Shown here: piece after piece, positions 18,727 through 63,924 of the stretch
Layout of the letters: every line of letters starts with the position of its first letter
Position numbering within the stretch: the stretch's first letter is position 1
Source of the DNA: a phage
Reading direction: 5' to 3' (one strand)
NCBI GenBank assembly: GCA_012646185.1
Contig: GCA_012646185.1_4706.1
Length of the DNA: 64,000 nt
Translations under genes and position numbers: made by a program
The notes under the pieces: generated by a model
Databases searched by the model: none
What the model was told of the DNA's origin: nothing
The model's input: the letters and a program-made list of their open reading frames with translations, nothing else

Positions 18727-18746
18727 CACCTAGGTAATGTAAGCGT
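18727..18746 (-). promoter_or_regulatory. conserved motif CACCTAGGTAATGTA (plus strand), candidate promoter element
   Basis: Same core as elements at 25205-25267 and 63861-63924; lies after a terminator and ~150 nt upstream of the 18576 start. Confidence 0.3.
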
Positions 18747-18784
18747 CAAATTTTTTCTATTCGCAACAATAAACGGCATAGAAA

Positions 18785-18814
18785 CCTCCCCCAACCCTTA
18801 CGGGCTGAGGGAGG
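18785..18814 (-). terminator. terminator hairpin downstream of major capsid gene
   Basis: CCTCCC...CCC-TTAC-GGG...GGGAGG; U-rich run follows on minus-strand RNA (plus 18750-18765). Confidence 0.65.
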
Positions 18815-18913
18815 CTGACTTATGTATCACGGTGCCGGATGAATGTCCGGTGCAATGAAACCATCCGCAACGTTGTCGTCAAGAATATCGTCCAACGAAG
18901 CAGCTACGGTAGT

Positions 18914-21136
18914 TCAGTTAGTCTGAACCGGCAGCTTGATGTTTTCAGTGTAGACCTTACGCAGGTTCACAACGTTAATCAGACCCAGCAGCGGGCAGTT
19001 GTTAACGAAGCGGCAGCGCGGCTGAACCATGGTTTCTTTAGAAACCTGACCGTTACGGGTAACCTGAGCAACAGATACCAGTTCCGGTACATACAGGAAC
19101 ATACCGAAGGTCAGCGGATCCGGAGAACCCTGGATACCACGAGACAGGGTCACGAAGATCTTATCGCGCAGCATGACGTTCGGGTTATCTACAACCACGA
19201 AGTTGAAGCTTACACCAACGGTACGGAAATCGCCATCGGTCTGCAGGAACTGCGGGATGTAGTTGTCAGTTGCTACTACGCAACGCGGTTTCTCATCAGC
19301 GTTGGAAGACAGCAGCTGCAGAGCTGGCTGATAACCAGACTCGGAGTACATGCGGTATGCCATCTCACGAATCACGTTCATGATCGCAGCAGACACTTCA
19401 GCACGACGTTCTGCAGTGGTGGTACCCTGAACAGATTTCTCCAGGTCCAGATTGATTTCTTCGAACCACGGACGGATCAGGTAACGACCGAAACCTTCGA
19501 TCTGGATGTCGCCGAACTGACGGAAGCGAGAGGTCGCAACCGCTTTCAGTGCGTCTTTGTAGCTGAACAGTTTCTCAACCATCAGGTTGTCGAAACGTGC
19601 GTTAGCAGCTTGGATCAGAACGTCCAGGTCAGCAGCGTTTTCTTCCCAATCCAGCGGACGAGGAATGGAGAACGGAGCCAGCAGGCCGATTGCGTAACGT
19701 TCTTGCTTCATGTTGAAGTCAAGGTGCTTACCGCGCTCACGACGGTTGCTGTTGTTACGGCGGATACGCAGTTCGTAACCAACCAGTTTGAAGCTCAGGT
19801 CTTCAGCCAGCTGTTTGAACTCTTCGCCCTTACGCGGTTGTTCGATGTTGTCACGATCGACCAGACGATACAGTTCAGCGTTAGCGCCGTTAACACGCAG
19901 ACCGGCTTTCTCTACGTTGGAAGAACCGTAAACTTCGATTGCCAGCTGAGCAGCGGATTTCGAATCGATGATGTCCTGCAGCGCTTCAGCTCGTGCACCT
20001 TTAACGTCAACGGTGTTCTCATCAACGAAGATGGAGTGGGTGTCGAACGCCAGGGTCATTTTGCGGAAGTCGCCTTCCAGGGATTTCTGGAAACCGTTGG
20101 TGATCAGACCAGATACGTCGAACGGTACGTAAGAGGTTTTGCTGTGCTTGGTAGATTTGATTTCCACCAGGATTTTGGTCAGCGTGATCTGGGCGTCCAG
20201 CGCGTCGGTGTTGTCGCTGTAACCGTTAGCCAGGATGCTATCGTCTTCAGCGATACCGATCATGTCGATCAGTTTATCAACAGCCAGGTAAGACGTTTTA
20301 TAAGTTACGCCTTTAATTTCGATGTCGCGCGGAGCAACGATAGCTTTGTCAACGAAGTACTGTGCGTTAGCATCGTCAGCACGATAGATCGGATGCAGAT
20401 CGGTCACGTCGTTGGACAGAACGTCGTTGTACATGAACGCATCCAGCAGCGGACGACGTACCCAATCAGCCGGAGTACCGTCAGCGTTACGACGCAGGTG
20501 GTTGAACACCAGCGGACGACGGAAAGATACGTCGTAACCGATCTGGTTCGGAGCCAGAACGATGGTGTTGTACAGTTCGTTACCCATGCGGCTCAGACGA
20601 GAAGCCTTCACGTTGAACACAACGGAGTACGGCATCATGTCACGCAGTTCTTTCTGGTCGTAGGACAGCTGAACCAGTTCTTCAGATTCGCAACCGCAGG
20701 AATCAGCAGCCATCATGACGAAGTTAGAGCTGTCAACTTCACGGCCAGACGGAGTGGTGCTGATGTTCATGGAACGTGCTTGTTTAGCATATTCCACCGG
20801 GTTACCATGAGCCAGCATGATCAGTGCTGCTGCACGAGCCTGCTGTGCGTTCATGGTGAACAGCTGTTCTTCAATACGCTGCTTCTCTTCCGGAGTGGTG
20901 GTTTCGAAGCCCAGCATGGACAGAACCGGTTCTTCGGCTTTACGGATGTCGCTGCTGAAGCTCTTAACATCCATTTCGTTAACCAGTTTGTCCATGGATT
21001 TGAAATCAACCTTAGAAGCAGATTCCATAGACAGGAAGGTGTTCTCCAGACCTTTGTCTGCTGGTTTGCTACCATTAGCGGTCAGGAACTGGCGAGTGGC
21101 CGCGACCTGTTGGCTAAGAAGGGTTTTATCATTCAT
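18914..21136 (-). CDS. putative major capsid protein (740 aa)
   Basis: ATG at 21134-21136 with AAAGGA ribosome-binding site; length close to the ~750-aa capsid proteins of phiKZ-like phages (recollection, not verified); strong host-like codon bias; own terminator. Confidence 0.55.
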   Translation of the reverse strand: MNDKTLLSQQVAATRQFLTANGSKPADKGLENTFLSMESASKVDFKSMDKLVNEMDVKSFSSDIRKAEEPVLSMLGFETTTPEEKQRIEEQLFTMNAQQARAAALIMLAHGNPVEYAKQARSMNISTTPSGREVDSSNFVMMAADSCGCESEELVQLSYDQKELRDMMPYSVVFNVKASRLSRMGNELYNTIVLAPNQIGYDVSFRRPLVFNHLRRNADGTPADWVRRPLLDAFMYNDVLSNDVTDLHPIYRADDANAQYFVDKAIVAPRDIEIKGVTYKTSYLAVDKLIDMIGIAEDDSILANGYSDNTDALDAQITLTKILVEIKSTKHSKTSYVPFDVSGLITNGFQKSLEGDFRKMTLAFDTHSIFVDENTVDVKGARAEALQDIIDSKSAAQLAIEVYGSSNVEKAGLRVNGANAELYRLVDRDNIEQPRKGEEFKQLAEDLSFKLVGYELRIRRNNSNRRERGKHLDFNMKQERYAIGLLAPFSIPRPLDWEENAADLDVLIQAANARFDNLMVEKLFSYKDALKAVATSRFRQFGDIQIEGFGRYLIRPWFEEINLDLEKSVQGTTTAERRAEVSAAIMNVIREMAYRMYSESGYQPALQLLSSNADEKPRCVVATDNYIPQFLQTDGDFRTVGVSFNFVVVDNPNVMLRDKIFVTLSRGIQGSPDPLTFGMFLYVPELVSVAQVTRNGQVSKETMVQPRCRFVNNCPLLGLINVVNLRKVYTENIKLPVQTN

Positions 21137-21285
21137 TGAAAGTATCCTTTACAGAATTAACTTATATAAGTCGGTCGATAGACCATAGCGTACACGCGTG
21201 CATGCGCCACTATAGTATCAGTAAACACTTACCGTTATTGAGGTCGTGATACAACACTAAAAATGCCGCATAACTTTTCCCTACG

Positions 21286-21906
21286 TCACAAACGACGCAG
21301 GCGATAATGGATGGAACGATTGGTGCAATATGAACGGAACAGCGGCAATTGCGCAACTTCCGCAAGACTCATATTAATTCGCAGGTGTTCAATAACGGCG
21401 CTGTAGTTATCAGCAATACGATCGCTCAATAACTCTTCTGCCAATAAAGGAAGACAATCGACAACAATCGCGATCACATCCTCATTAACATAACGCACCC
21501 GAACACTCAGCGGACGTTTGTCTGGGCTGTAAGTTGGATCCGCCAAACGACGTTCAATATCACGCGGATAGCTCGTCAGTAAATGGTAATAACCATTGTC
21601 ATAACGATTGATGTACTCACACAGCACATCAACATTCTTCTCTGGCGGCAAACCTGTTTCGTCATAGTGATACGCAAACATACCACCAAGCAGGTTGTTA
21701 AGATGAACCGCAGGGTTCGCTTGTTCGTGTTCTTTCGTGATGAAGAAAGGCACGTTCTGGGCTGCGAAATAAAAACCTACATCATTGGGCGATAGTATGC
21801 CGAAAAGACTTTTAGGGTCTAATAACACCTGTAAGTCATCACGCGCATTTCGAATAATCGCGTGTTCTACCCAATTCGGAACGACGAGATATCGGAGTTC
21901 CTTCAT
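21286..21906 (-). CDS. hypothetical protein (206 aa)
   Basis: ATG at 21904-21906 with AAGAGG ribosome-binding site. Confidence 0.8.
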   Translation of the reverse strand: MKELRYLVVPNWVEHAIIRNARDDLQVLLDPKSLFGILSPNDVGFYFAAQNVPFFITKEHEQANPAVHLNNLLGGMFAYHYDETGLPPEKNVDVLCEYINRYDNGYYHLLTSYPRDIERRLADPTYSPDKRPLSVRVRYVNEDVIAIVVDCLPLLAEELLSDRIADNYSAVIEHLRINMSLAEVAQLPLFRSYCTNRSIHYRLRRL

Positions 21907-21945
21907 TATGATTACCTCTTTGCAAGTATCGAAAGGATTGAGTCG

Positions 21946-23556
21946 ATGGACCCAAAACAGATAGCCATTAAGATTATTACGTTACTGTTTCGTAATGCAC
22001 AATTGAACCATCCCGATCCCAGTACGATCGAACATGTTAAATCCGTCTTAGATAAAGTCGAACCCCCGAAAAACCATCTCGCTACAGACGTAGATAGAGA
22101 GGTTTTCAACAACCTGATGAATACCATTCATTGGATGTTGGAACAACCATTATCGGAACCTTTCGATAAACAACAGTTGTTACAAAGGATACGTTTGGAT
22201 TGCCTTGAACAAAGCAATCTTTACGAGATTCTTGCCGACGGACTGTACGATATCGAAGACGACGCTCATATCAGTAAGGTCTGTTCGCTCTATTACAATG
22301 AATTACGTAATCTGATTACCCGGCGTCGTGTTTTCGAAACCTTTAAAAACACGTACATGGATATCAGTAACGGGCGACTTGGGGATAAAGAATTTTTCGA
22401 TGCGATGGCGAATCTGAAATTATCGCTAGACAGTATCGAAATGGATACCGAAAATCCCGAAGAGATGTCGTGTATGATTGACGGCTTTATCGCTGACAGC
22501 GAAGACGATATCGAGAAAGTTGAACGTATGTTCGTCAAAGCGATGGAACGTAACAGTCCTGAAGGTGGATTTGTAACCGGCTGGCAAGGCTTTAATAAAA
22601 TGTTGGGGTCGGTCGGCGTTTTACGTCGCGGTACCTTAGGACTGATTGGTGCAATGCAGCACCGGAACAAGTCAGGCGTGTTGTTAAAACTGTTCACACA
22701 TCTGGCATTGTACAACAAACCCCATTTCTTTTTCCCAGAGCGAGCAAAGAAAGCATTACTGATTCATTTGTCGACAGAAAACGAAGTGGAAGAAAACACG
22801 CTTCAGATATACAAGAACATGCGAGAACAGGAAACGGGCGAATATGTCGATATTCGTAAGATTGACCCTCGCGAGGCATCACGTTATGTGTTGAAGGTGT
22901 TCAACGATGCGGGTTTCTCTGTTTGTATGCGTCGTGTTGATGGGATGAGTTATAAACAACTCGCTAATCTCATCGACCATTTCGAACGCATGGGTTATGA
23001 AGTCATGGCGTTGTTCATTGACTATCTGAAAATGTTCTCATCGGAAGGGTTGGATAGAAATGGACCGACCGGCGCATGGCTCCAAGAACTCTTCAACAAA
23101 GTCCGTAACCTCTGCAGCGTTAAACGTATTTTAGGTATGACGGTACACCAGCTGTCATCCGATGCGAAGATGCGTGCGCGTGATGGTAACGATGAAGAGT
23201 TTGTTGACCAGGTCGCAGGTTTAAGTTACTGGGATGGTTGTAAAGGGATCGACCGTGAGATTGACCTTGAGGTGATTGTTGATATCGTTAAGGAGCCGGG
23301 CAAACGTCAAAGTTGGCAGGTCTTTGCGTTAGGGAAAGACCGTCAACCGGATAACGGTTCAACGAAACCTGAAGACAAACATTTCGCGATGCCATTCCAA
23401 ACCATCGGGATGCTTCCTGATGATTACGGTAAGAAAGCAGTATACTGCCGCAAGGTTGGCGGACAACCTGTCTCCGAGGGAGGTAAAGGTCCGTGGAACA
23501 AGTTCGATGAAAACGCAGCACCGAGTAATGAATTACAATTTGATTTAGAATTTTAA
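21946..23556 (+). CDS. putative DnaB-like helicase (~536 aa) with atypical P-loop
   Basis: Start moved from GTG 21862 to ATG 21946 (AAAGGA, 8-nt spacer). GWQGFNKMLGSVGVLRRGTLGLIGAMQHRNKSG parallels the DnaB Walker A region; ALFIDYL resembles DnaB Walker B IDYLQL; QLSSD follows. Confidence 0.5.
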   Translation: MDPKQIAIKIITLLFRNAQLNHPDPSTIEHVKSVLDKVEPPKNHLATDVDREVFNNLMNTIHWMLEQPLSEPFDKQQLLQRIRLDCLEQSNLYEILADGLYDIEDDAHISKVCSLYYNELRNLITRRRVFETFKNTYMDISNGRLGDKEFFDAMANLKLSLDSIEMDTENPEEMSCMIDGFIADSEDDIEKVERMFVKAMERNSPEGGFVTGWQGFNKMLGSVGVLRRGTLGLIGAMQHRNKSGVLLKLFTHLALYNKPHFFFPERAKKALLIHLSTENEVEENTLQIYKNMREQETGEYVDIRKIDPREASRYVLKVFNDAGFSVCMRRVDGMSYKQLANLIDHFERMGYEVMALFIDYLKMFSSEGLDRNGPTGAWLQELFNKVRNLCSVKRILGMTVHQLSSDAKMRARDGNDEEFVDQVAGLSYWDGCKGIDREIDLEVIVDIVKEPGKRQSWQVFALGKDRQPDNGSTKPEDKHFAMPFQTIGMLPDDYGKKAVYCRKVGGQPVSEGGKGPWNKFDENAAPSNELQFDLEF

Positions 23557-23582
23557 ACGCAAAAAAAAAAGATTGTGCGGTT

Positions 23583-23614
23583 CCCTCCTCCAACCCGTAA
23601 GGGAAGGAGGAGGG
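23583..23614. terminator. conserved terminator hairpin between convergent genes
   Basis: CCCTCCTCC-AA-CCC-GTAA-GGG-AA-GGAGGAGGG preceded by A10 (U10 after hairpin on minus strand). Confidence 0.8.
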
Positions 23615-23630
23615 GTTATGACCGCTTTGA

Positions 23631-23957
23631 TTAACTTATTGTCATGAATTCATTAGGTGAAAATTTCCAGCCGTTCTCAGTGAGAAGCGTGTTGAGTTTC
23701 GCTGCAACGATAAGCCATGCATGCATGGCTGTTACATCGTATTGGCGATTCACTCGACGTTGGTTTTCGATATTGATTTGCTCCTGTTCAGTGATGTTTG
23801 GATAAAGTGCGATAGCGCTAGGTTTACCCAGCGCGCTAGTCATCACCGCCGTACATTCACTGATAATGTTGTTTAAGTGGTAGTTATACACCGTTCCACG
23901 CATGACGCGATGACGGCATTCGATAATAGCGTCGTAAATGATTTCTCGAGTAATCAT
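23631..23957 (-). CDS. hypothetical small protein (108 aa)
   Basis: ATG at 23955-23957; terminator downstream. Confidence 0.75.
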   Translation of the reverse strand: MITREIIYDAIIECRHRVMRGTVYNYHLNNIISECTAVMTSALGKPSAIALYPNITEQEQINIENQRRVNRQYDVTAMHAWLIVAAKLNTLLTENGWKFSPNEFMTIS

Positions 23958-23963
23958 GATAAT

Positions 23964-24365
23964 TTAAAACATACGGTCGTTTTTAGCACGGGCGTCCATT
24001 ACCAGATCGTAGATGCCTGCGGTTCGTAAGCACTCTTCGTAGTAACGATGTGTGCCTTCCTCAGCCATCCACGATAACCCACGGCTATCCGCAACAATAA
24101 CCAGTTTGTTATTGTTGAACGCACACACCACACGGTAGGTCGCGTTGTTATTCGGATCGCGAGTGATAAGTTCGTAAACGCCGTTAACAGGTTTACTGAA
24201 TTCACCGTTTAACGGAACGAGTTCGGTAGTACCTTCAGCAAACGTTACGTTGATCGGTGATGGGTCTTTAGCGATAACAGTATATTCCACATTGTGTTCT
24301 TTACTGGTCATAATACCGAAGTAAGAACTCACAGGGGAACGTGGTACACTAAGAATATTAAACAT
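23964..24365 (-). CDS. hypothetical protein (133 aa)
   Basis: ATG at 24363-24365 with AAGAGGA ribosome-binding site. Confidence 0.8.
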   Translation of the reverse strand: MFNILSVPRSPVSSYFGIMTSKEHNVEYTVIAKDPSPINVTFAEGTTELVPLNGEFSKPVNGVYELITRDPNNNATYRVVCAFNNNKLVIVADSRGLSWMAEEGTHRYYEECLRTAGIYDLVMDARAKNDRMF

Positions 24366-24435
24366 AGATGTTGTCCTCTTAATTGGATTTAGATTGTTGG
24401 GTGTGTTATTGGGAAATGAAAACGTTGTTTCGGTT

Positions 24436-25005
24436 TTAGACGATGAGTGACCAGGTGGTAAGCACCCCGCTTGCGAATTCGAGCTTAAGACGTTTACCGA
24501 TAAGTTGTTGTTGGATCATCTTCTCGGTGATACGTCGATCATGCTGAACCGCTTTATCAAACGCTTCTTTCGCTTCAGCTTGGTAGAAGTTCGTTTCTTC
24601 GTTTTCGTCGATCTCTTCGAGAGCATCGTCGTCGATGTCAGCAAGTTTCACTCGACCGTTTTCATCAGGTTGTTCTGCAGGTTCATTGTCATACGGCGTG
24701 TCTTTTGTTGGTGCGACACGATGTTGCAACTCGACCTGCGTTAACATGATCTCCATCTCACCATCGATAGGAATGATTTCATCGGCGCTGCCGTTTTCGG
24801 TCAGCTCTCGACTTTCCAGTAATGTCGTCGTAACAGAGAACACCTCTTCAACAGGAACCTCATCATCGTCGATGGTGTTAACCGTATTGCTGGTAACTTC
24901 GGCAACAACCATCAAATCAAATGCGTGAGGGTCACCTGGCATTTTGATTCCTGGAAGTTTGTTGAGGTACCAAGGATCAAGAATCATGATTTCTGGATTA
25001 AACAT
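24436..25005 (-). CDS. hypothetical acidic protein (189 aa)
   Basis: ATG at 25003-25005 with GAAAGG ribosome-binding site; ~200-nt leader after the conserved element. Confidence 0.8.
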   Translation of the reverse strand: MFNPEIMILDPWYLNKLPGIKMPGDPHAFDLMVVAEVTSNTVNTIDDDEVPVEEVFSVTTTLLESRELTENGSADEIIPIDGEMEIMLTQVELQHRVAPTKDTPYDNEPAEQPDENGRVKLADIDDDALEEIDENEETNFYQAEAKEAFDKAVQHDRRITEKMIQQQLIGKRLKLEFASGVLTTWSLIV

Positions 25006-25204
25006 CGTATTTTACCTTTCTATGTTAGGTGGATTGCGGATAGAAGAATCAATGCATAGATTGATAGTTCTTTGTTAGAAATTATTGCCGAACCGGTTAT
25101 GGTTATAACGCGTGTTTTCGTATTCTGACGGGTCGCGTATTAATAAGGCCATGACTGTATCCTCGATTATTAAGAGAAATTTACAACGATAACAGTAACC
25201 GCTG

Positions 25205-25267
25205 TTATCACCTAGGTAATGTAGTCGCGAAATAAACTGGAGTAATGCGAAATAAGACAGCATAGAA
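25205..25267 (-). promoter_or_regulatory. conserved ~60-nt element, candidate phage promoter
   Basis: About 85% identical to 63861-63924; plus strand reads CACCTAGGTAATGTAGTCGCGAAATAAACTG...CGAAATAAGACAGCATAGAA. Confidence 0.35.
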
Positions 25268-25299
25268 CCCTCTCCCAACCCATCAGGGAAGGGAGAGGG
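25268..25299 (-). terminator. conserved terminator hairpin
   Basis: CCCTCTCCC-AA-CCC-ATCA-GGG-AA-GGGAGAGGG directly after the stop of the 25304 gene. Confidence 0.7.
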
Positions 25300-25303
25300 A
25301 ATA

Positions 25304-26671
25304 TTAAACGGTTGGGCGAACGGTGTTGTCTTTTTCTGGTGCAAGCCATAACGTGACCGTACCATGGCATGTCCACTGTGGTTCACGTACAGAAGAACCT
25401 GCCATCGTAACAGCACAATCGGTACGCATGATAACCCCGTATGCTTCGCAGAGATTGTTATCCTGCATCCACACAACTTTAGCAGGCATGCCAGGATACA
25501 ACAAATCCATGTTTGCGTATTCCCACACCAACTGCATTGTTCTGCCGCGTAATCCAGCAGTATTACTTAATTCACGCCATCGGTTATCGGTTACGCGCCC
25601 CATCCCTTTCGCCACCTTCACGTTATCGCTACGTTCTTCAGTTACGTACTCGCTAACGTTTACGGTACGACTGATTATCGTATCACCCCCTTTTGATAAT
25701 GTCATTCCCTGACTCATCTGACTTGCCGAAACAAAACGCCCGCCCGCATTACCTAACAACGAAGCCGCGTTATTGATGTCGCTTACCGACGCCCCTCTCG
25801 TACATGCAATTTCCACGTATTTGTCACGATTGATCCAGGTCTTGTCCATGCCCGGAAACATATCGGCAGGATAGTTGTAAAAGATAGCCGTACGGCGGCC
25901 ATCAGAGAAACGGGTTTCGTCATAGAGAGGATAAATATACAGATACGGGGATTGATAATAACAACCGACATCCGCTGAATAAATACCGACCTGGTTCTGG
26001 ATTTTGTCTACGAGATCCATTGCGTTGGTACCGTGTGGAAGAATAAGCAACTTGAACAGGTTGTCGTTATTCGGTGCAACAATATCCACACCCTGCATTT
26101 TGAACCCGGTATCGGCTTCAACCGCAGAAAGTATCTTGCTGAATTCGAGCCGTAACACATCCAGCACTTTCGACCCGGTATAGTTTTCACCGGTTTCTGA
26201 TTGCATGAAGCTTTCAAGAACAGGATCGAACAGTTGAAATTGAAGATCGACCATTTGTTCGTAGTCTTTCTTCGAAGAATCGGTTGCGGTACGTTCGTCG
26301 TTAGCAGACATACGACTGTCTACGGTTGTTAAACAAACCGCCCGGTAGACGTAAGCTTGCGCAGCATCGTCTACGGTTTGGCGTTGTCCGCGCATCAGGC
26401 TGTACGCCTGCACGATGATGCGCATTTTAAGTTGTTGTTGGTATGGTAGAATGTATTTTCCGTAACTGCCCGGTGGGAACTTTACAGAAATATAAAGTTC
26501 ATCCCCTGCGTTACGTTCATAGTCTCGATACGTGTGGACTTGAGTCACTAAAGGAACAGACACCGTCATTGACGGCGTGATTAATTCCGCGGTGACTTTA
26601 TACGCAACAGCAACTGCTTCCTGCGCAAATGTACCGATATACCGTCCTAACGGCGTCTGTTTGTAATCCAT
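25304..26671 (-). CDS. hypothetical protein (455 aa)
   Basis: ATG at 26669-26671; long ORF; upstream gene stops 2 nt before its start. Confidence 0.85.
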   Translation of the reverse strand: MDYKQTPLGRYIGTFAQEAVAVAYKVTAELITPSMTVSVPLVTQVHTYRDYERNAGDELYISVKFPPGSYGKYILPYQQQLKMRIIVQAYSLMRGQRQTVDDAAQAYVYRAVCLTTVDSRMSANDERTATDSSKKDYEQMVDLQFQLFDPVLESFMQSETGENYTGSKVLDVLRLEFSKILSAVEADTGFKMQGVDIVAPNNDNLFKLLILPHGTNAMDLVDKIQNQVGIYSADVGCYYQSPYLYIYPLYDETRFSDGRRTAIFYNYPADMFPGMDKTWINRDKYVEIACTRGASVSDINNAASLLGNAGGRFVSASQMSQGMTLSKGGDTIISRTVNVSEYVTEERSDNVKVAKGMGRVTDNRWRELSNTAGLRGRTMQLVWEYANMDLLYPGMPAKVVWMQDNNLCEAYGVIMRTDCAVTMAGSSVREPQWTCHGTVTLWLAPEKDNTVRPTV

Positions 26672-26673
26672 GT

Positions 26674-28592: not shown

Positions 28593-30144
28593 AGCGTTTC
28601 ACTCCTACGATGGTACCGACAAGAATTCTCGGTACGAATAAACTACGATGTTTGAACCATGAAGCGGTTGTTGGGATACGTTTGATGGCTTCGATAAGCC
28701 CGATTAGCGTATAGCATCCCCGACTGTTCTTCCTAGGCCAGTACTTTTTATCTAGACCTAATACTGCAAACAGTTCATCCACCAGATTGGGATAACAACA
28801 CAACGCTTCAAGTGTTTCAACCTGTAACTGACTTAAATCTAACAGTATCGCTAGACGAACGTGGTAATCACTCCGTAAGTCTAACGGATCTTTCGCTTCA
28901 AGATCACCAACGTCGGTTAATGTCCACGCGTCTCTTGCGTAGCGGTATTTGCCCTTCCAAACCTCAAGGAAAAAAGGAGATTGGTAGTGGCATTTTGACC
29001 ATTCTGGGTACTCACGGAACCACCGAACAAGATCGGGATGGAATTCACCTTCTTCGGCTAACGAGTCCAACGTCACCAATAGGTTAGGTTGTTCAGGATC
29101 GATGGCAAGCAGCGCGGTGAAAAGCGTGCTTGATGGAAGTTCGGTTTCCACGCTCGATGGCGGTAGCCATTCATCCAAATCAGGATACCGATACGCTTGA
29201 ATCGATGCGCCCTGTTCAGGCAAGAACGAATCACGAAGAATGTCCTGATACTGCACCACCATACCACCACGACGCGCACGGGATTTATCACGCACCGAAA
29301 GGCTCGGTTTGTAAAGGTACTCTTCGGGGAGTATCTGTTGGTGTACTTGAACCGGATACCGTGCTACGATGTGTGTTGGCGTGTCGTACGTGTAACGGTA
29401 AGAGAAGGTTGCGTTGTACGAAGAACTGTTCTCATTCTTCTCGGGTTTCGGAGCGTCGGTGAAATCAAATTGACCAGAGATCTCTTCTTGCATTTCCCTG
29501 ATAACCAATTTAACGCTCTTACCGTCACCGGCAACTGTCGTCATGGTGGTTGCACGGTTGTCGAACCCATCCCTAAGGTATTCGCTGAACTTATCCCCGT
29601 AACCCGCTATTGCTTCTCGGTGTGTATGAATAACTTTTAACAACATGAGAAACTGTGTTGGGATCGCATAGCTGTATTCGGCGCTAAGAAAGGCGGCAAC
29701 ATGCTGACTTGTGAGCAACCGTTTCATGTCGTACCACCAACGTTCGGCAGTGACCTGATCTTCGAACCGTTTGGTGATCTGCATGGTTGCAACCATCGTA
29801 CTGTAAACAGGTACCAGCGATACACCAAGGTTACGGTCTTCAAATACGGGAAGACTGTTTCGTTTGTAAACAGTATCGTACATAGAGGCCTGTTCTTCAG
29901 GGACAATGTTAAGCTCAATTTGGATAAACCCGTCAGCAGGCCCCTTTACATCCTGATCAACAACTTGCGGCGGTTGCTCGTTCGCAGCACTCATTTTAGC
30001 GTGAAGCGCTTCCCCTCGAAAAAGAATGTTCTCCCGACTATAATCCCACCCGCAAAGCTCGCTGATCTGCCGTAACACCGCGATTGCAACCGGACGTGTT
30101 ACCGTCGCGTATACGTCATTGATTTTTCGATCAAGTTTAGGCAT
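28579..30144 (-). CDS. hypothetical protein (~521 aa), start moved to ATG at 30142-30144
   Basis: Track start GTG at 30171; ATG at 30144 has GAGGA ribosome-binding site 8 nt upstream and lies 2 nt after the upstream stop. Confidence 0.8.
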   Translation of the reverse strand: MPKLDRKINDVYATVTRPVAIAVLRQISELCGWDYSRENILFRGEALHAKMSAANEQPPQVVDQDVKGPADGFIQIELNIVPEEQASMYDTVYKRNSLPVFEDRNLGVSLVPVYSTMVATMQITKRFEDQVTAERWWYDMKRLLTSQHVAAFLSAEYSYAIPTQFLMLLKVIHTHREAIAGYGDKFSEYLRDGFDNRATTMTTVAGDGKSVKLVIREMQEEISGQFDFTDAPKPEKNENSSSYNATFSYRYTYDTPTHIVARYPVQVHQQILPEEYLYKPSLSVRDKSRARRGGMVVQYQDILRDSFLPEQGASIQAYRYPDLDEWLPPSSVETELPSSTLFTALLAIDPEQPNLLVTLDSLAEEGEFHPDLVRWFREYPEWSKCHYQSPFFLEVWKGKYRYARDAWTLTDVGDLEAKDPLDLRSDYHVRLAILLDLSQLQVETLEALCCYPNLVDELFAVLGLDKKYWPRKNSRGCYTLIGLIEAIKRIPTTASWFKHRSLFVPRILVGTIVGVKRYGAR

Positions 30145-30520
30145 CGATGTCGTCCTCGCTAATTTCCTCACCTCCTTGTTGTCGATATCCGGTATAATGA
30201 ATCAGACTGCTCTGTAGAAGCTCTTTAACGAGCCCTAGACGCGTTTTATCTGTTTCATTGGACGTTTCCATTAATGTTTCTATTTCGTTGTTTAAAACAG
30301 CGTATAGCGCTTCTAACGGCAATCCTTGGATGATTGGTTTGATGGTACCTTCCGGTAGTGCCGCAACAGGAATCTGCACGACGGTTTCATGTGAGGTATG
30401 TGGGTTAATACGGCAAATATACATACCGGGTACTGAATGTCGCGGGCACGCCGCTACCAAGCATGTCTGTTGCTGCGCACCGTTAAGTGCGAGTGAGAGA
30501 AATTTTGCTTCACGTGTCAT
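30137..30520 (-). CDS. hypothetical protein (127 aa)
   Basis: ATG at 30518-30520. Confidence 0.75.
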   Translation of the reverse strand: MTREAKFLSLALNGAQQQTCLVAACPRHSVPGMYICRINPHTSHETVVQIPVAALPEGTIKPIIQGLPLEALYAVLNNEIETLMETSNETDKTRLGLVKELLQSSLIHYTGYRQQGGEEISEDDIDA

Positions 30521-30571
30521 CGCAGATTCCTGTTTGAAAGATAAGATATCACATGATGGTCGACAGCATAA

Positions 30572-30593
30572 AGCCCACCCCGAAGGGCGGGCT
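30572..30593 (-). terminator. hairpin AGCCCACCC-CGAA-GGGCGGGCT with GCATAAA/TTTATGC flanks
   Basis: Sits between the stop of the 1128-aa gene and the next start. Confidence 0.5.
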
Positions 30594-30608
30594 GTTTATG
30601 CGTACGGA

Positions 30609-36402: not shown

Positions 36403-36509
36403 TTGGGACTCCTACGTAGGAAAATCTTGGCGGGTGATCATGTCCGCCATTTACCTTCTGAACCGTTGATTCAGAAGTCAAAAGATAACCGGATACCAAC
36501 GTCATAAAA

Positions 36510-36541
36510 CCTTCCTCCAACCCAACAGGGAAGGAGGAAGG
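36510..36541 (-). terminator. conserved terminator hairpin
   Basis: CCTTCCTCC-AA-CCC-AACA-GGG-AA-GGAGGAAGG. Confidence 0.7.
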
Positions 36542-36551
36542 GATATAGTGG

Positions 36552-39167: not shown

Positions 39168-39215
39168 GTGTTGTCTCCAGTAATGATTCAAAAGATAAAC
39201 CTGAGCGGCATAGAA

Positions 39216-39247
39216 CCCTCTCCCAACCCGTTAGGGAAGGGAGAGGG
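39216..39247 (-). terminator. conserved terminator hairpin
   Basis: CCCTCTCCC-AA-CCC-GTTA-GGG-AA-GGGAGAGGG. Confidence 0.7.
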
Positions 39248-39269
39248 GATATGTCAGTTTATTAACTGA

Positions 39270-51152: not shown

Positions 51153-51183
51153 CCTAGGTGGAGGCCAATAACCTCCACCTAGG
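51153..51183 (-). terminator. distinct near-perfect hairpin CCTAGGTGGAGG-ccaataa-CCTCCACCTAGG
   Basis: 12-bp stem between the stop of the 930-aa gene and the start of the 1201-aa gene; terminator, attenuator or processing site. Confidence 0.5.
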
Positions 51184-56013: not shown

Positions 56014-57513
56014 ATGAGCGAACAAGAACGAAAACCTAAGAAGAAACTGCTCGGTATTCAATGTCGACACATCAGCTATAACGAAGCGAACGACGGCAGC
56101 AAGAACGACCTCATGATCGCAAAAGAGATCATGTTCTTTGATGACAATACGCAAGCGACGAACCTTCGCTTCTTTGAGAATTACAAACGTCCGTTTTGGG
56201 TGACGGTAGAGAGTAAACGTAAGAACAAATATAAAAAGGAAAGCGAGAAGCTCTCGCATGTGCGTCGCTATGATGTCCGCCAAAGTGAACTGGTTGAAAA
56301 GATCAGTTCGGTGCTTTATAAAAGACGTGCTGACGATAACACCCGTTTACAGCAGCTTGCACGGAGTCCATACCTCTACGGCACGGACGTTAGCGCCAGC
56401 TGTTATTTAAAAACCCAGTACAACACAAAATGGCCGGAATACGTCGATAAATTACCCGCTTCCATTGCCTGTTTCGATATCGAAACCGACGTTGTCCATG
56501 GACATGGTAAGATCGTTTGTATGTCTATTACAATGGGATACAATGCGATACTTTGCTATACCAAGGACTTCGTTGGTCATATTCCGAATGCGATTGAGAA
56601 AACCCATGAGAAGATTCGATATTACCTGGCCGAACGTCTGAATACCAAAGAAGATCCTCATGCGTTCGAAAAATATCAGTACGATGTGCGAATCGTAGAA
56701 AGTCCGGCACAAGCAGTCATCCAATGCATGCAGAAGGTTCACGAATGGCAGCCGGATTATCTCCTTGGCTGGAATATCGCGTTCGATATTCCGCGCATGC
56801 TCCAGGCACTGAACGAGGAAGGGTATCGTCCCGAGGATGTTTTCTCCGATCCTCGTGTACCCCCTAAGTATCGTATTGCTCGCTGGGTACCACCGAAGAC
56901 CGACAAGGTATCTGCTTCAGGCCGTAAAACCAACCTTACCCTCGAGCAGACCTGGCCGATGTTTTATACGATGGCTACGTATCAGGTTATGGATGCGATG
57001 TGTGGTTATAAGTTCGTTCGTTTAGGAAGACCGGATGAGGGACGCTATTCACTCGATGCGGTGTTAGAGCGTAATAAATGCCATACGAAATTAAAAGCGA
57101 TTCCTGGTACAGAAGGGTTCACGGAGCTCGCCTGGCACGAAGAGATGCAAACGAACCATCAAATCGACTACGGCGTATATAACCTTTGGGATAACCAAGG
57201 TATTGAGGCGTTGGACCAGAAAACAAAAGACTATTCGATGACCATCCCGATTCGTTTAGCGGCGTCGGATTTGAAAGATTTCAGTTCCAACCCTAAACGT
57301 ATCTGCGATAAACTTTTCTTCGTGTATCTTAACCGTGGGGAAGTCATGGGATGCACCGCCGACGACATGACCCAGGAAGAAGATAAGTGGGTTATCTCAC
57401 GAACCGGACATATCGTCACATTACCATGCGATCTCATGGCGGACAACGGCATTCATCTCTTCTGGGATATGCCTAATTTAAGGAGCTATATTCGATTATT
57501 TGTTGCGGATTAA
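56014..57513 (+). CDS. family-B DNA polymerase, N-terminal/3'-5' exonuclease part (5' exon plus read-through to in-intron stop)
   Basis: Exo I FDIETD, Exo II GWNIAFDIP, Exo III YNLWD in T4-like order and spacing; no polymerase motifs A/B/C; ORF ends at the start of the intron region. Confidence 0.75.
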   Translation: MSEQERKPKKKLLGIQCRHISYNEANDGSKNDLMIAKEIMFFDDNTQATNLRFFENYKRPFWVTVESKRKNKYKKESEKLSHVRRYDVRQSELVEKISSVLYKRRADDNTRLQQLARSPYLYGTDVSASCYLKTQYNTKWPEYVDKLPASIACFDIETDVVHGHGKIVCMSITMGYNAILCYTKDFVGHIPNAIEKTHEKIRYYLAERLNTKEDPHAFEKYQYDVRIVESPAQAVIQCMQKVHEWQPDYLLGWNIAFDIPRMLQALNEEGYRPEDVFSDPRVPPKYRIARWVPPKTDKVSASGRKTNLTLEQTWPMFYTMATYQVMDAMCGYKFVRLGRPDEGRYSLDAVLERNKCHTKLKAIPGTEGFTELAWHEEMQTNHQIDYGVYNLWDNQGIEALDQKTKDYSMTIPIRLAASDLKDFSSNPKRICDKLFFVYLNRGEVMGCTADDMTQEEDKWVISRTGHIVTLPCDLMADNGIHLFWDMPNLRSYIRLFVAD

Positions 57514-57606: not shown

Positions 57607-58743
57607 ATGTTGGAACATCTTGAACATTTAGACAATGAATACTTAAATTTCACCAATCGTCGTTATCGTATCTTCGAAGACGGTACACTTTACGATTACA
57701 AAGAGAATTGTAAAGTACCTGTTATAATAGAAGATAACAACTCTTACGTTATTATCGATTGGTATCGTGGGGTTGGTAAATACGAATTGGGGATGATCAT
57801 GCTTACAGCATTTGATCGCATCCACATTCCTAACTATCTTTACGATGAAATTGAATCGTTGTTTATTGATAACGACCCGACGAACTTTTCGTATAGTAAC
57901 CACATCTATCGTTTCCGTAATGGACCGCTGGCTGTGGAAGGGTATCCGGGATATTACTACATCCCGTTTGCCACGTACTATGCGCTAAATGAACAAGGTG
58001 AATGTTTAAGTCTTTTGTCTGGGGAAGGTATAACGTGGACAATGACGCAGCAAAACGGTACGCGGCGTCCCGGCTATCGATACAGAAAGGTAACACCTGA
58101 TAGCGGTTTTACGGCTCAGCTGTATCGTCATCGAGCGATGATGTTGACGTTTCGTCGTTACGACGCAAGCGTTGTGGAAATGACCGTTAATCACAAGAAC
58201 GGTATTAAAGGCGATGATTGGCTGGATAACCTGGAATGGGCAACCTACAAGGAAAACAACAATCATGCGCGTATAAACGGTTTATGTGACGGCAAAGCGA
58301 AACCTATCAAGATCTTTGATTATAATCGTCATACCGAACGTCATTTCAAGAGCATCGCTGAGGCGGAACGTGCGTATCCACACGTAGCAAAAGGACGTTT
58401 CAAATGGTGGGTTGAAAATCCACCGAAACGTATACCTGAATGTAACCTCTACATCAAACATGCGTTCGATAATACTCCGTGGCCTGAATGGAAACTGGGT
58501 GATGAACGACGTATTGAAGATGTAGCGGGTATTCCGATTATCGCCCTTAACATGGTTACAGGCGAGAAACGAGTGTATTCATCGGTTACAGCTGCGGGTA
58601 AGGATACGAAAACAAGTTGGATAACAGTACGACGTCACTGTGATAAGCGTGTCGTTCCTGTTAAACAAGCATGGTGTTTCCGTTATGCTGACGACGTCAA
58701 AAACATGCCTGAGTTAACTTCCCTACCAACAATCGAACAGTAA
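57607..58743 (+). CDS. HNH homing endonuclease (378 aa)
   Basis: ATG start; motif VNHKNGIKGDDWLDNLEWATYKENNNHA (His-Asn-His); located inside the intron. Confidence 0.8.
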   Translation: MLEHLEHLDNEYLNFTNRRYRIFEDGTLYDYKENCKVPVIIEDNNSYVIIDWYRGVGKYELGMIMLTAFDRIHIPNYLYDEIESLFIDNDPTNFSYSNHIYRFRNGPLAVEGYPGYYYIPFATYYALNEQGECLSLLSGEGITWTMTQQNGTRRPGYRYRKVTPDSGFTAQLYRHRAMMLTFRRYDASVVEMTVNHKNGIKGDDWLDNLEWATYKENNNHARINGLCDGKAKPIKIFDYNRHTERHFKSIAEAERAYPHVAKGRFKWWVENPPKRIPECNLYIKHAFDNTPWPEWKLGDERRIEDVAGIPIIALNMVTGEKRVYSSVTAAGKDTKTSWITVRRHCDKRVVPVKQAWCFRYADDVKNMPELTSLPTIEQ

Positions 58744-59254
58744 CGATAACAGGTCCCCCTACTTGTAATGAGTGGGTGAACTCTCTTTAATTGCTGGAAA
58801 CCTTTAATGCCCCTCCACACCACAACGCAATCCGAAAGGGTAAACGTGATGGTTGTCGAAAGACAGAAAAAAGTTGGAGGGGATTACCTAAGCTGAAATA
58901 AAAGCCGTTACTTTCTGGATATGGAAAGAGTCTAACGGTGCTAAGGGTCCTGCTAGAAATAAGGTAACCGTAGCAGCGAAGACCCTACGGACTGTCGTGA
59001 CCGACTCGATGAGTTGGCGTGGTTAACACGGACAGGCTACGGGTAACGTTCAACGACCATCCGGTTGCGCGGAGTAGGAGAATTAGGATGTTCTCCGAAA
59101 AGGGAGAAGTCGGTCGAGGTGTTGTAGAAACACCGTTGCTTTGCTTCGCAAACATAAGACAGGCTAAGATATGGTCTATATTAAATGTAATACTATGATG
59201 TATAGAATTTAATGGCTCGATATTAGCAGTTCATATCCAAATGGGCAGATCCTG
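58744..59254 (+). ncRNA. group I intron catalytic core (3' portion)
   Basis: Region aligns by eye to T4 td intron: CTTGTAAT...GGGTGAACTCTCT...AATTGCTGG then R and S elements; no protein-coding capacity. Confidence 0.55.
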
Positions 59255-59470
59255 TTGAATCTATCCAGAGCATGTGTTTTTCGTGAGCTCTCACGCATTG
59301 AGGGCGTCTCTGACTACCAATTCAGGAAGCTAGGTATCAACTTTATTACCGGAGGTAAAACGAACGCTGTAGACTTCTGTAGAATCGTTTATAAAGCACC
59401 ATCGATGTTTGAGCTCTTAGAACATTTCGATGCGACGCGTCCAAAAGAGGAAGCGCGGACCATCGAATGA
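59255..59470 (+). CDS. possible 3' exon of the polymerase-exonuclease gene (frame open from 59213), or small independent ORF
   Basis: ORF follows directly after the intron core; track start is TTG; terminator hairpin downstream. Confidence 0.3.
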   Translation: MNLSRACVFRELSRIEGVSDYQFRKLGINFITGGKTNAVDFCRIVYKAPSMFELLEHFDATRPKEEARTIE

Positions 59471-59519
59471 TTCAAGTAGGTTGATCCTCGTTTAACAAAA
59501 AAGAAAACACATGCGAAGC

Positions 59520-59549
59520 TCCTCCCCCTGGCGGAAGCCGGAGGGAGGG
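59520..59549. terminator. hairpin with GGAA loop, terminator between convergent genes
   Basis: CTCCTCCCCCTGGC-GGAA-GCCGGAGGGAGGG with one mismatch; U-rich on the minus side. Confidence 0.6.
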
Positions 59550-59556
59550 GTGAGGT

Positions 59557-60605: not shown

Positions 60606-60633
60606 TGTTTCTTTTCCTGTGTAGTCGGTATAC

Positions 60634-60669: not shown

Positions 60670-60680
60670 ATGCTACGTTG

Positions 60681-61079: not shown

Positions 61080-61114
61080 CTTTTAATCCCTAGTTTGTTA
61101 TTGATCACGTATAT

Positions 61115-61510: not shown

Positions 61511-61605
61511 TTTTTATCCTTAATGTTATCGATATTGACGAGTTCATCAATACGGCACTGTTGGTTGAATTCGATTAATCGTTGAACTTTATCTTTGATA
61601 GACAT
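61507..61605 (-). CDS. possible 32-aa ORF (MSIKDKVQRLIEFNQQCRIDELVNIDNIKDKK), translationally coupled
   Basis: ATG 2 nt after the upstream stop; its TGA overlaps the ATG of the 61115 gene; GAAGGAG upstream. Below the ORF-track size cut-off. Confidence 0.3.
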   Translation of the reverse strand: MSIKDKVQRLIEFNQQCRIDELVNIDNIKDKK

Positions 61606-61607
61606 GA

Positions 61608-62066
61608 TTACCCATTAGCTCCTTCTTCGTCTGGAGAGTACTCCATTGTGTAGAATTCATAACCATCGGAAAACTTGAGTGTTAATGTAATAGGGAAATC
61701 GCACGGCGTAGCTGATTTCGTAAATGCGTTATTAGCAACATCTGCCAACCGACGTATAGCATCAGTCCCGCTGACGCTGAATGGTAGTTGTATGTTGATA
61801 AGGATACGATGCTTGTAAACATAGAAAACAACGGTACTGTCAAGATAGACGCTATGGAACGGTATTGTTGGGATGCGTTCCACGATGGTAAAATACGTCC
61901 CGTCATTATCGCTATGTCCCACCGACCAAATATCGGATTTGCGTAGATTTTGTTTGAGAGATTCGATGCTTCGAGTGACGGTATCAGCAACAGGCGTGAC
62001 GTAAGCGTCTTTATGCGAGTCGAAAAGTTCGTTGACGTTAGATTCGAATGAAAACGTTGTTGCCAT
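61608..62066 (-). CDS. hypothetical protein, small paralog pair D (152 aa)
   Basis: ATG at 62064-62066; C-terminal region resembles the 62132 gene (PITLTLKFSDGYEFY vs PVILTINGHDGSGLFEF). Confidence 0.8.
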   Translation of the reverse strand: MATTFSFESNVNELFDSHKDAYVTPVADTVTRSIESLKQNLRKSDIWSVGHSDNDGTYFTIVERIPTIPFHSVYLDSTVVFYVYKHRILINIQLPFSVSGTDAIRRLADVANNAFTKSATPCDFPITLTLKFSDGYEFYTMEYSPDEEGANG

Positions 62067-62091
62067 TTTCTACCTCAATGGTTTAACCGAT

Positions 62092-62118
62092 ACGTGCCCC
62101 ACCTAACAAGGGACACGT
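62092..62118 (-). terminator. hairpin ACGTGCCCC-acctaacaa-GGGACACGT
   Basis: One mismatch; sits between two minus-strand genes. Confidence 0.35.
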
Positions 62119-62131
62119 TATCGTTGATTAA

Positions 62132-62626
62132 TTACTCTTCTGTGTTTTCATTGTCGGGATCGTAGTGGAATTCGAACAGCCCTGAACCGTCGTGCCCGTT
62201 GATTGTTAGTATAACGGGCATATCGAATCCTCGGACACGCGAATGAAAACACTGTGCTAATTTGAGTTTGGCGTATGCCGCTATTTCATTGACAGCAATA
62301 CACGATTCACCTGTTATACTCAGTATAACGTCGATACTAACAATGTTGTCGTGCAACGCAAAACGCCAGCGATCGATACGATTATTATCTTTATCGGTTG
62401 TCTCGTTTACGAGATAGACTTTATCGTCAACCGACAAAGCGGGACTCCAGCAACGATCGTTTATTAAATTCGCCTGGAGTTTTAGTATCGTCTGATCGAT
62501 AATATCCCAACACGTAACCAGCGTGGTGTCAGGCACTGAGTAGAGAAGGGCGTGCACTTTATCCTTTATTTTAAGTGCTTCCGCAGGACGTCCGCAAATA
62601 CCATGCATTTCAACTTTCTTATTCAT
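62132..62626 (-). CDS. hypothetical protein, small paralog pair D (~164 aa), start moved to ATG at 62624-62626
   Basis: Track start GTG at 62632; ATG two codons later follows a purine-rich AGAAAGAAG. Confidence 0.75.
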   Translation of the reverse strand: MNKKVEMHGICGRPAEALKIKDKVHALLYSVPDTTLVTCWDIIDQTILKLQANLINDRCWSPALSVDDKVYLVNETTDKDNNRIDRWRFALHDNIVSIDVILSITGESCIAVNEIAAYAKLKLAQCFHSRVRGFDMPVILTINGHDGSGLFEFHYDPDNENTEE

Positions 62627-62669
62627 ATTCACTTCTTTCTTAATCTAAATGTTAGTTGGGGTGGAATGC

Positions 62670-63272
62670 TTACATGCTTTCTAACATATCGATGATCATG
62701 GAACCCATACCGAAACTCGGTCTTTCACCGATGTACTCAGCAAGCTGGCGATGGACGTCTTTTGGATTTCCTTCTTCACCATCGGCATCGATGTAGACCG
62801 AAAAAGAAAATGAATCGGAATCCACGCTGATAACCAGACGACGTTCATTGCGTTCCTTGAGCGTGTCGACGATAGCTGCTTTCAGTACTGCGATCGCGTT
62901 CATCGCGTGCAAGATATCTCCATCGGGTTTCGGCAGATCGATCTTTTCTTTCAGGTCGATATTGATGTTGGTTACAATTGGGTTGAGGTCGACCTTGACG
63001 TAATCGTTAGGGTACATGCGAATAATCGCACGATCGATATCTGAACCGTAAAAGTCAACACGTGGCTTTAACACTTCTTTGTTTGGATCCATGTTTTCAT
63101 CCATACCCGCCTGCAAGAAACGTTCTACGTTATCCAGTTCACGATAAACTGACGCTTCGATTTCTTTCAGATAGTTGGCTGCGGTTTCATGTTCTTTACG
63201 CAGCTCGTCTTTAAGGAGCTGTACGGTGACTTCACTGGAACGAATGCTGTTCGCGAATTGGGTAATTGACAT
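62670..63272 (-). CDS. hypothetical protein (~200 aa), start moved to ATG at 63270-63272
   Basis: Track start TTG at 63302; ATG at 63272 has AAGGAA ribosome-binding site 6 nt upstream. Confidence 0.75.
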   Translation of the reverse strand: MSITQFANSIRSSEVTVQLLKDELRKEHETAANYLKEIEASVYRELDNVERFLQAGMDENMDPNKEVLKPRVDFYGSDIDRAIIRMYPNDYVKVDLNPIVTNINIDLKEKIDLPKPDGDILHAMNAIAVLKAAIVDTLKERNERRLVISVDSDSFSFSVYIDADGEEGNPKDVHRQLAEYIGERPSFGMGSMIIDMLESM

Positions 63273-63327
63273 ATCGAATTCCTTAAATTCTCTTGAGTTC
63301 AATTAATGATGAAAAGCTGTAAAAAAA

Positions 63328-63345
63328 GGTGGGGCGAACCCCACC
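63328..63345 (-). terminator. intrinsic terminator GGTGGGG-CGAA-CCCCACC with U7 tract on minus strand
   Basis: A7 on plus strand immediately 5' of the hairpin; downstream of the 63371 gene. Confidence 0.8.
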
Positions 63346-63370
63346 AAAACGTCAGACACACGCAGGAAAA

Positions 63371-63796
63371 TTAATTCAGTGACGCATATAACGCATAACG
63401 ACTGTAGATCTCAACCGCCGGTCCGTTATGCGTTAACAGACCATCCCGGTTGTAATACTGGAAAAATGAATAACGTTTGTCGAAGTGATAAACAAAAGCA
63501 ATGTCTTTGCTGCCAAGACCTGTGATGCGTGGTCTGTTTTTATCTAACAGCGCTTTGACTTTTAACAGTGTTGCCGCACGTGCTTTAACGTTAGGGATTA
63601 ATCCATCACAATCGATATAAACTGTGTAACCTGTTTCAGATGTTGCGACGGTCGTATTGCGATTGACGCGGAAGATTTTTGTTTCGTATGTACTATCTTC
63701 AAGAATTGGGTTTTGTTTTTCGTATTTTCGTTTACGCAGAAATTCTACAACGGTGATATAGTTAGCGGTAATATGCCCGGTTATAGCTTGTAACAT
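63371..63796 (-). CDS. hypothetical protein (141 aa)
   Basis: ATG at 63794-63796 with AAAGGA ribosome-binding site; conserved upstream element. Confidence 0.8.
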   Translation of the reverse strand: MLQAITGHITANYITVVEFLRKRKYEKQNPILEDSTYETKIFRVNRNTTVATSETGYTVYIDCDGLIPNVKARAATLLKVKALLDKNRPRITGLGSKDIAFVYHFDKRYSFFQYYNRDGLLTHNGPAVEIYSRYALYASLN

Positions 63797-63860
63797 CTTG
63801 ACATCCTTTTATATTGGATTGGTTGCAATTGTCTTAAATAGATGATAAGATATTTTGCTC

Positions 63861-63924
63861 TTATCACTAAGGTAATGTAGTCGTGAAATAAACTGCGTTA
63901 ACACGAAATAAAAACAGCATAGAA
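63861..63924 (-). promoter_or_regulatory. conserved ~60-nt element, candidate phage promoter
   Basis: About 85% identical to 25205-25267; about 70 nt upstream of the 63796 start. Confidence 0.35.

Follow-up and report, generated by a model that had tools for sequence, protein, structure and literature searches.

Three repeated elements on the minus strand of a 64,000-nucleotide (nt) stretch of phage DNA (GenBank assembly GCA_012646185.1, contig GCA_012646185.1_4706.1; hereafter the window) are very probably early promoters of the phiKZ type, specific to the lineage of Escherichia phage vB_EcoM_Goslar and each placed directly behind a phiKZ-type transcription terminator. The elements were named element 1 (25205-25267), element 2 (63861-63924) and element 3 (the region of 18727-18746). 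The window originates from a Goslar-like, nucleus-forming jumbo phage, as a 3-kb piece around element 2 was 96.8% identical to vB_EcoM_Goslar, a nucleus-forming E. coli chimallivirus of 237 kb within the phiKZ-like family. We infer that the elements would be read by the virion RNA polymerase, early in infection, and from the start sites predicted below. Promoters of this kind are already known from phiKZ-like phages; the mapping for the Goslar lineage is the addition made here, and no new principle is involved. The comparisons drew on the whole Goslar genome and on parts of the genomes of phiKZ and three other family members.

An earlier note, made from the letters of the window, had described elements 1 and 2 as about 85% identical between unrelated flanking genes, and had assigned the core of the same sequence to element 3. 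Alignment of elements 1 and 2 resulted in 54 identities over 64 aligned columns (84.4%), with a local alignment score of 43 (mean for random windows, 6.9), and a repeat search of the window recovered the pair as repeat family D11 (84% over 55 nt). The minus-strand 15-mer TACATTACCTAGGTG was present exactly at 18727-18741 and at 25209-25223, and with 2 mismatches at 63865-63879. The proteins encoded downstream of the elements were without significant similarity to one another. At all three places the minus strand displayed the same order: a stop codon, a strong hairpin, TTCTATGCYGT, a spacer, TACATTACCT(A/T)(G/A)GTGA and a gene. The terminator hairpins that the note had placed ahead of the elements were detected at each of them (z -4.8 to -6.6), and minus-strand start codons followed element 1 at 204 nt, element 2 at 69 nt and element 3 at 151 nt, in keeping with the 70 to 200 nt noted before. 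The conserved terminator motif of phiKZ is 5'-BCCYCCCCHWWDGGGRRGGBYTTATKYYGT-3' (PMC10914365); the window hairpins (-26.6 to -31.3 kcal/mol), followed by TTCTATGCYGT, fit this type, a C-rich/G-rich hairpin with a YTAT(G)YYGT tail. The description of the sequence as one element of about 60 nt stood in part. Its first 11 nt or so (TTCTATGCYGT) are the tail of the terminator and are not part of the promoter, and the remainder is retained as the putative promoter and transcript start.

The count of the 15-mer alone was within chance (3 matches versus 1.05 expected, with 3 reached in 13 of 100 shuffles), and a 41-column weight matrix was therefore used for testing. A search of the Goslar genome for the core, allowing at most 3 mismatches, returned 14 matches, all on the minus strand; the 13 with extended context were kept, and the matrix was trained on these sites. 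A genome-wide motif count had been proposed in the earlier note as a check, and in this count the matrix found 14 Goslar sites at 30-52 bits, with the next best match at 11 bits. No copy was found by matrix scan on the plus strand of Goslar, which carries mainly structural genes. The consensus over the Goslar sites was tAAT.cAaaa..tTTcACG.C-TAYATTACYT-a.g-TGA, in which an A/T-rich tract (tAAT.cAaaa..tTT) stands ahead of the core. The core TAYATTACYT itself was present in 13 of the 14 Goslar sites (the other reads TACATAAC) and in all three window sites; GCGCGGCC was defined as the mutated counterpart of TAYATTAC. An independent matrix, trained on the 11 Goslar sites outside the region equivalent to the window, scored the three window sites at 35-44 bits, every other position of the 64 kb below 3 bits, and 200 shuffles at no more than 13.5 bits.

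The placement of the Goslar sites was judged by hand against the Goslar gene tables. The sites were intergenic and lay 25-205 nt before start codons on the same strand, with one exception inside Goslar_00047; copies upstream of other genes, the absence of which had been named as evidence against a promoter, thus exist. Goslar_00047, annotated with 62 aa, is probably mis-called, since it starts at the ATG of a terminator tail and reads through the promoter (the equivalent of 25075-25263 in the window). The genes behind the Goslar sites include chmA (gp189), gp176 (the next after chmC) and gp165 (annotated as RNA-polymerase-beta-like). A pattern scan of viral contigs detected the exact motif in Goslar, in two close relatives and in two chance coding matches (L013 and L024), and in no distant relative. 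A palindrome within the core, ACCTAGGT, was considered as an operator and was dropped because it is not general across the promoter family.

Early promoters of phiKZ carry an AT-rich motif of about 10 nt centred near -10, which is phage-specific and is read by the injected virion polymerase (PMC7598289, PMC8244752), and they are T-rich upstream of -19 (PMC8244752). Ceyssens 2014, as cited in PMC8244752 and PMC7598289, gives 28-32 such sites with an AT-rich consensus. The earlier note had named a TATATTAC-like core for these promoters, and the motif was here taken directly from phiKZ DNA, where TATATTAC occurred 7 times on the coding strand of the first 50 kb. All 7 sites sit in the context aaaaaaatttRagatyTATATTACnnnnnTGA, and one of them lies upstream of PHIKZ054/chmA. 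The chmA promoters of the two phages were alike over 38 nt (Goslar, ATTGAAAAAAATTTCAGGGTTATATTACCTAGGTGAAT; phiKZ, AATGAAAAAAATTTGAGATTTATATTACTAAATTGAAT). Another phiKZ site was located after the capsid gene, PHIKZ120: in the gap that separates this gene from PHIKZ121-123, GCCCTCCCttcgGGGAGGGCTTTATGTTGT is followed by aaaaaaagtttaagatcTATATTAC, that is, a terminator and then a promoter, as at element 3. When the Goslar matrix was applied to phiKZ, the phiKZ sites were found, at up to 27 bits; when a matrix from the 7 phiKZ sites was applied to Goslar, the top five sites scored 21-32 bits, with shuffles at no more than 18.5 bits. A literature search with the core string TATATTAC returned nothing relevant. 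Both chmA and the genes of the non-virion RNA polymerase are reported as targets of the virion polymerase (PMC12908238, PMC13282480). Thus, the proposal of a phiKZ-type early promoter was supported by the same core, the same A/T tract and the same TG spacing, and by the presence downstream of chmA and of the operon of a non-virion polymerase subunit.

The arrangement found at element 3 and in phiKZ, in which the capsid gene is followed by a terminator, a promoter, a gene and the polymerase subunit, was also found in Klebsiella phage vB_KpM_FBKp24 (NC_061421.1). The sequence of this locus is TCTATGTTTG...gaaaccTATATTACCTtatTGA, i.e. ...GGGACTgggTCTATGTTTG...cgaattttcttgaaaccTATATTACCTtatTGA, and the site scored 20.7 bits with the Goslar matrix, the best match in its 9.7-kb locus. 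In Ralstonia phage RSF1 and Vibrio phage phiKT1019, the layout of element 3 was kept and the motifs had diverged. With the Goslar matrix, the phiKZ and Klebsiella loci had their best match in the intergenic gap that follows the capsid gene, and the Vibrio locus in the gap just before the polymerase-subunit operon. The promoter core, the type of terminator and the position of one cassette, between the capsid gene and the polymerase subunit, are thus kept across phages of Pseudomonas, Klebsiella, Vibrio and E. coli, which argues that promoter recognition by the virion polymerase is ancient within the family.

Collectively, these data suggest a model for the Goslar-like chimallivirus in which each of the minus-strand elements would function as a composite regulatory cassette. 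The terminator, a C-rich/G-rich hairpin with YTATGCYGT, would stop the transcripts of the upstream late structural gene. The early promoter would lie about 35 nt past the terminator and comprise the A/T tract, tTTcACG.C and the AT-rich core TAYATTACYT; the injected virion RNA polymerase would melt this core and start at the TG(A) five bases on. By analogy with phiKZ, with the core centred near -10, the start sites are predicted at 25209 (element 1), 63865 (element 2) and 18727 (element 3), each within 1 nt. Such cassettes could let early units of the same orientation sit inside the late structural cluster without being read as late genes; the units concerned would be one with a non-virion RNA polymerase subunit and two with small, lineage-specific genes. 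The features of the three loci are collected in Table 1.

Table 1. Features mapped or predicted at the three elements of the window, by locus
Feature	Coordinates	Strand	Description
Element 1, phage-type terminator	25256..25299	-	hairpin 25268-25299 and tail TTCTATGCTGT; CTATG 25265-25261; -26.6 kcal/mol, z -5.4
Element 1, putative early-type promoter	25205..25245	-	ttactccagtttatttcgcgac-TACATTACCT-agg-TGA; 46.5 bits with the full matrix, 35.4 with the independent matrix
Element 1, hairpin at predicted 5' end of transcript	25188..25209	-	GATAACAG-cgguua-CUGUUAUC; -9.3 kcal/mol, z -2.4
Element 1, predicted transcription unit	23631..25152	-	25-aa ORF 25075-25152, then 24436-25005, 23964-24365 and 23631-23957
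Element 1, two-way terminator at end of unit	23581-23619	both	from the hairpin+YTATG scan
Element 2, phage-type terminator	63913..63964	-	hairpin 63925-63964 and tail TTCTATGCTGT; CTATG 63922-63918; -29.1 kcal/mol, z -4.8
Element 2, putative early-type promoter	63861..63901	-	ttaacgcagtttatttcacgac-TACATTACCT-tag-TGA; 50.4 bits with the full matrix, 44.0 with the independent matrix
Element 2, hairpin at predicted 5' end of transcript	63843..63866	-	UGAUAAGA-gcaaaaua-UCUUAUCA; -10.1 kcal/mol, z -3.7; 0 of 200 shuffles as stable
Element 2, predicted single-gene unit	63321..63796	-	141-aa gene 63371-63796; canonical hairpin+T-run terminator 63328-63345
Element 3, phage-type terminator after major capsid gene	18770..18816	-	hairpin 18783-18816 and tail TTCTATGCCGT; CTATG 18781-18777; -31.3 kcal/mol, z -6.6
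Element 3, putative early-type promoter	18723..18763	-	aatagaaaaaatttgacgct-TACATTACCT-agg-TGA; 44.9 bits with the full matrix, 38.0 with the independent matrix
Element 3, predicted transcription unit	12407..18576	-	genes 17140-18576, 15304-17103, 12732-15269 and 12407-12682
Element 3, two-way hairpin+CTATG terminator at end of unit	12340..12395	both	12351 minus, 12391 plus; -26 to -28 kcal/mol

Four points weigh against the assignment of the elements as early promoters. First, in 10.1101/2023.09.20.558163, the legend to Extended Data Fig. 4 has the chmA start sequences beginning 91 nt before the start codon. If this were the true chmA start, it would fall within the motif, some 25 nt upstream of the predicted start; the number 91 recurs for a second gene, however, and seems to reflect a convention of display. 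Second, the window copies have C at core position 3 (TACATTAC), as do none of the eight phiKZ sites inspected; close relatives switch between C and T at this position. Third, the leaders of elements 3 and 1 would be 151 and 204 nt long, as against the 31-40 nt typical of phiKZ (PMC8244752). Fourth, 175 genes are reported on at 5 min (10.1101/2023.09.20.558163), and to serve them all from 14 promoters would take long read-through.

The similarity of elements 1 and 2, 84% over 64 nt, may in addition reflect shared ancestry, with terminator-promoter cassettes copied or exchanged by recombination and serving as junctions for new genes. This account would complement the assignment as early promoters, and we regard its chances as evenly balanced. 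The spacer common to elements 1 and 2 was absent from the other 12 members of the family, and it has the look of a further promoter copy, incomplete and decayed (TTATTTCGC..ATTAC). The related phage IMGVR_UViG_3300011560_000001 (about 96-97% identical) carries, at the element-2 locus, a terminator of the element-1 type together with an extra gene of about 150 aa (L020 3828-4440), and the original promoter survives downstream of the new one as a truncated remnant. At its element-1 locus, another extra gene (about 650 bp inserted) is located just upstream of the terminator (L014 1622-2274), and the terminator there resembles the copy at 39208 of the window. The genes behind both elements were confined to Goslar: among 50,697 phage records, the 189-aa protein of the element-1 unit and the 141-aa gene of the element-2 unit had homologues only in that phage. 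Since the cassettes are the exact sites of the gene insertions in this related phage, the extra likeness of elements 1 and 2 most likely arose by cassette exchange and not from constraint on the promoter. However, the examples of insertion are two, both from one relative, and an old duplication with common descent and no ongoing exchange would look similar.

Upstream of the late structural genes 30137-30520, 35101-36402 and 37851-39167 (in 30521-30608, 36403-36551 and 39168-39269), nothing but the hairpin and YTATG was conserved, which gave rise to the idea that the TATG of the terminator tail doubles as a start for the late polymerase. The CTATG directly 3' of each hairpin would then also be a late promoter for the non-virion polymerase, and the downstream units would be expressed both early and late. 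The late consensus of phiKZ, T-3 A T G+1, overlaps the start site (PMC7598289, PMC7618050), and TATG follows straight after the hairpin in all three elements (G at 18777, 25261 and 63918). However, a start at TATG consists of four bases and holds almost no information, and the YTATKYYGT of the tail is already accounted for by the terminator motif (PMC10914365). Furthermore, the phiKZ late promoter p119L is without an upstream hairpin, and published analyses of late promoters found no upstream conservation (PMC7598289). A late start at the tail is unlikely.

The hairpins at the predicted 5' ends of the transcripts bear on a different proposal, in which the conserved sequence would act mainly as RNA: a hairpin in the 5' leader would make early transcripts more stable, or would serve as a signal for their export or for a phage RNA-binding protein. 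At the 14 Goslar sites, the 40 nt past the core folded better than chance (mean z -2.15, P about 0.003 versus random 40-mers), and in elements 1 and 2 and two sites of the related phage differing stems occupied the same position. However, conservation is seen in the columns upstream of the hairpins and not in the sequences of the stems, and the hairpin of element 3 was not significant (z -0.9). The eight phiKZ early sites displayed no excess of folding (mean z -0.77, P 0.76), so that a 5' hairpin as a trait of the whole family was unsupported. An Rfam scan of the whole window gave no matches at the gathering threshold, and the likeness to the phiKZ promoters is a match between sequences at the level of DNA. 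A role mainly as RNA is therefore doubtful, and we rate it below a late start at the tail. A small RNA of a giant phage (PMC11512511) was also considered; it is unrelated and is located upstream of a tail gene.

These ideas can be combined into a single cassette, in which terminator, early promoter and 5' hairpin would form a mobile unit that plants lineage-specific early genes in the late cluster, the hairpin, a feature of the Goslar lineage and not of phiKZ, would label the RNA to be kept stable or to leave the early infection vesicle, and the TATG of the tail would allow the late polymerase to restart. We consider this combination improbable, to about the same degree as a role of the elements mainly as RNA.

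That the elements are host sigma-70 promoters or middle promoters of the phiKZ type is highly improbable: element 3 contains TTGACG and the elements are AT-rich, but no pair of sigma-70 hexamers (-35/-10 with a spacer of 16-18 nt) overlapped any of the three, sigma-70-like matches were scarcer than in shuffles (7 versus 12.5 in 18000-26000 and 1 versus 4.2 in 62000-64000), as fits a phage that makes no use of the host polymerase, the development of phiKZ is independent of that polymerase (PMC7598289), and the middle motif of phiKZ, unlike the motif described here, is a TACT that follows an A-rich repeat and is centred at -22 (PMC8244752).

With the elements taken as early promoters, the unit predicted behind element 3 includes a subunit of the non-virion polymerase. 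A beta-like subunit of the non-virion RNA polymerase is encoded at 15304-17103: the protein is homologous to PHIKZ123 (E = 5.8e-41 to PDB 7OGP chain E), matched phrog_2943 ('polymerase', E = 7e-120) and had homologues in 218 phage records, annotated as RNA polymerase beta subunit. PHIKZ123 is a subunit of the non-virion RNA polymerase of phiKZ (PMC12676376). The product of 12732-15269 had weak similarity to PHIKZ124 (E = 4e-4), and a comparison of gp40 with PHIKZ122 revealed no detectable similarity. The gene upstream of element 3 is the major capsid gene (PHIKZ120, E = 1e-56). Behind element 1, the minus-strand ORF 25075-25152, which is preceded by a GAGGA ribosome-binding site, was the sole plausible ORF in 25075-25263, and the proteins of this unit had no Pfam or PHROG matches.

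The combination of hairpin and YTATG was not restricted to the three elements. Across 3252-63922 of the window, 15 oriented sites were found (e.g. 12351/12391, 23616, 30571/30596, 36507, 39213, 47490, 59557 and 60668), several of them two-way and between convergent genes. Ten of the sites were on the minus strand, and only three of these are followed by a promoter. A scan for U-run terminators missed the hairpin+YTATG terminators. A perfect 12-bp palindromic hairpin without a YTATG tail, CCTAGGTGGAGGccaataaCCTCCACCTAGG, was found between two minus-strand genes at 51153-51183, and it has the octamer CCTAGGTG in common with the 3' part of the promoter.

Two other features of the window were recorded. 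A stretch of about 810 nt at 58744-59556 was without a convincing ORF and ends in a plus-strand hairpin with TTATG; it comes after a DNA-polymerase-exonuclease gene (56014-57513) and a NUMOD/HNH endonuclease gene (57607-58743), and no intron was found in it with Rfam. At 275-1281, six copies of a 65-nt unit recur at a spacing of about 183 nt within a long ORF that runs off the start of the window, and these probably encode the repeats of a domain in a fibre-like protein.

The result for the Goslar lineage is a consensus and a map of 14 putative early promoters, and no published report of a Goslar early-promoter consensus was found in the literature searched. Goslar is the E. coli model for nucleus-forming phages, and the map could be of use for reading the published RNA sequencing time course, for predicting early units, and for designing early-expression cassettes as have been built for phiKZ.

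The known system closest to the terminators of the window is the intrinsic terminator of phiKZ and 201phi2-1 (PMC10914365; PMC11512511), with which they share C-rich and G-rich arms, a short loop and a YTATG-YYGT tail in place of a U-run. They differ in the length of the stem, which is greater in the window and reaches 15-17 pairs, with an inner helix, and in the tail, where CTATG often stands in place of TTATG.

The putative promoters resemble the early promoters of phiKZ in their core (TATATTAC in phiKZ, TAYATTAC here), in the A/T tract upstream and in the TG five bases past the core. In both phages a dozen or more copies are present per genome, oriented with operons, and copies stand before chmA and, behind the capsid gene, ahead of a PHIKZ123-type subunit; five of the eight phiKZ sites inspected lie directly behind a terminator tail. 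In contrast to phiKZ, the Goslar lineage has an extra G+C-containing block, tTTcACG.C, between tract and core, accepts C at core position 3 and prefers CYT-a-g-g after the core. Goslar has 14 sites, with starts predicted from sequence, whereas phiKZ has about 30.

A parallel to the proposed exchange of cassettes is reportedly found in T4-type phages, in the promoter-early stem-loop (PeSL) mobile regulatory cassettes of Arbiol et al. (2010). These are said to be repeated units of an early promoter and a hairpin that flank small genes and lie at insertion junctions between related genomes, as the elements appear to do here. The T4 units reportedly carry sigma-70 early promoters, whereas in the window a terminator is joined to a putative promoter for a phage polymerase, and mobility is suggested by two junctions in one relative.

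The FBKp24 locus offers the comparison with an annotated record. This phage belongs to another genus and its polymerase subunit is only 28% identical, but a terminator and a promoter are marked in its record after the major head gene, in the same position and order as at element 3.

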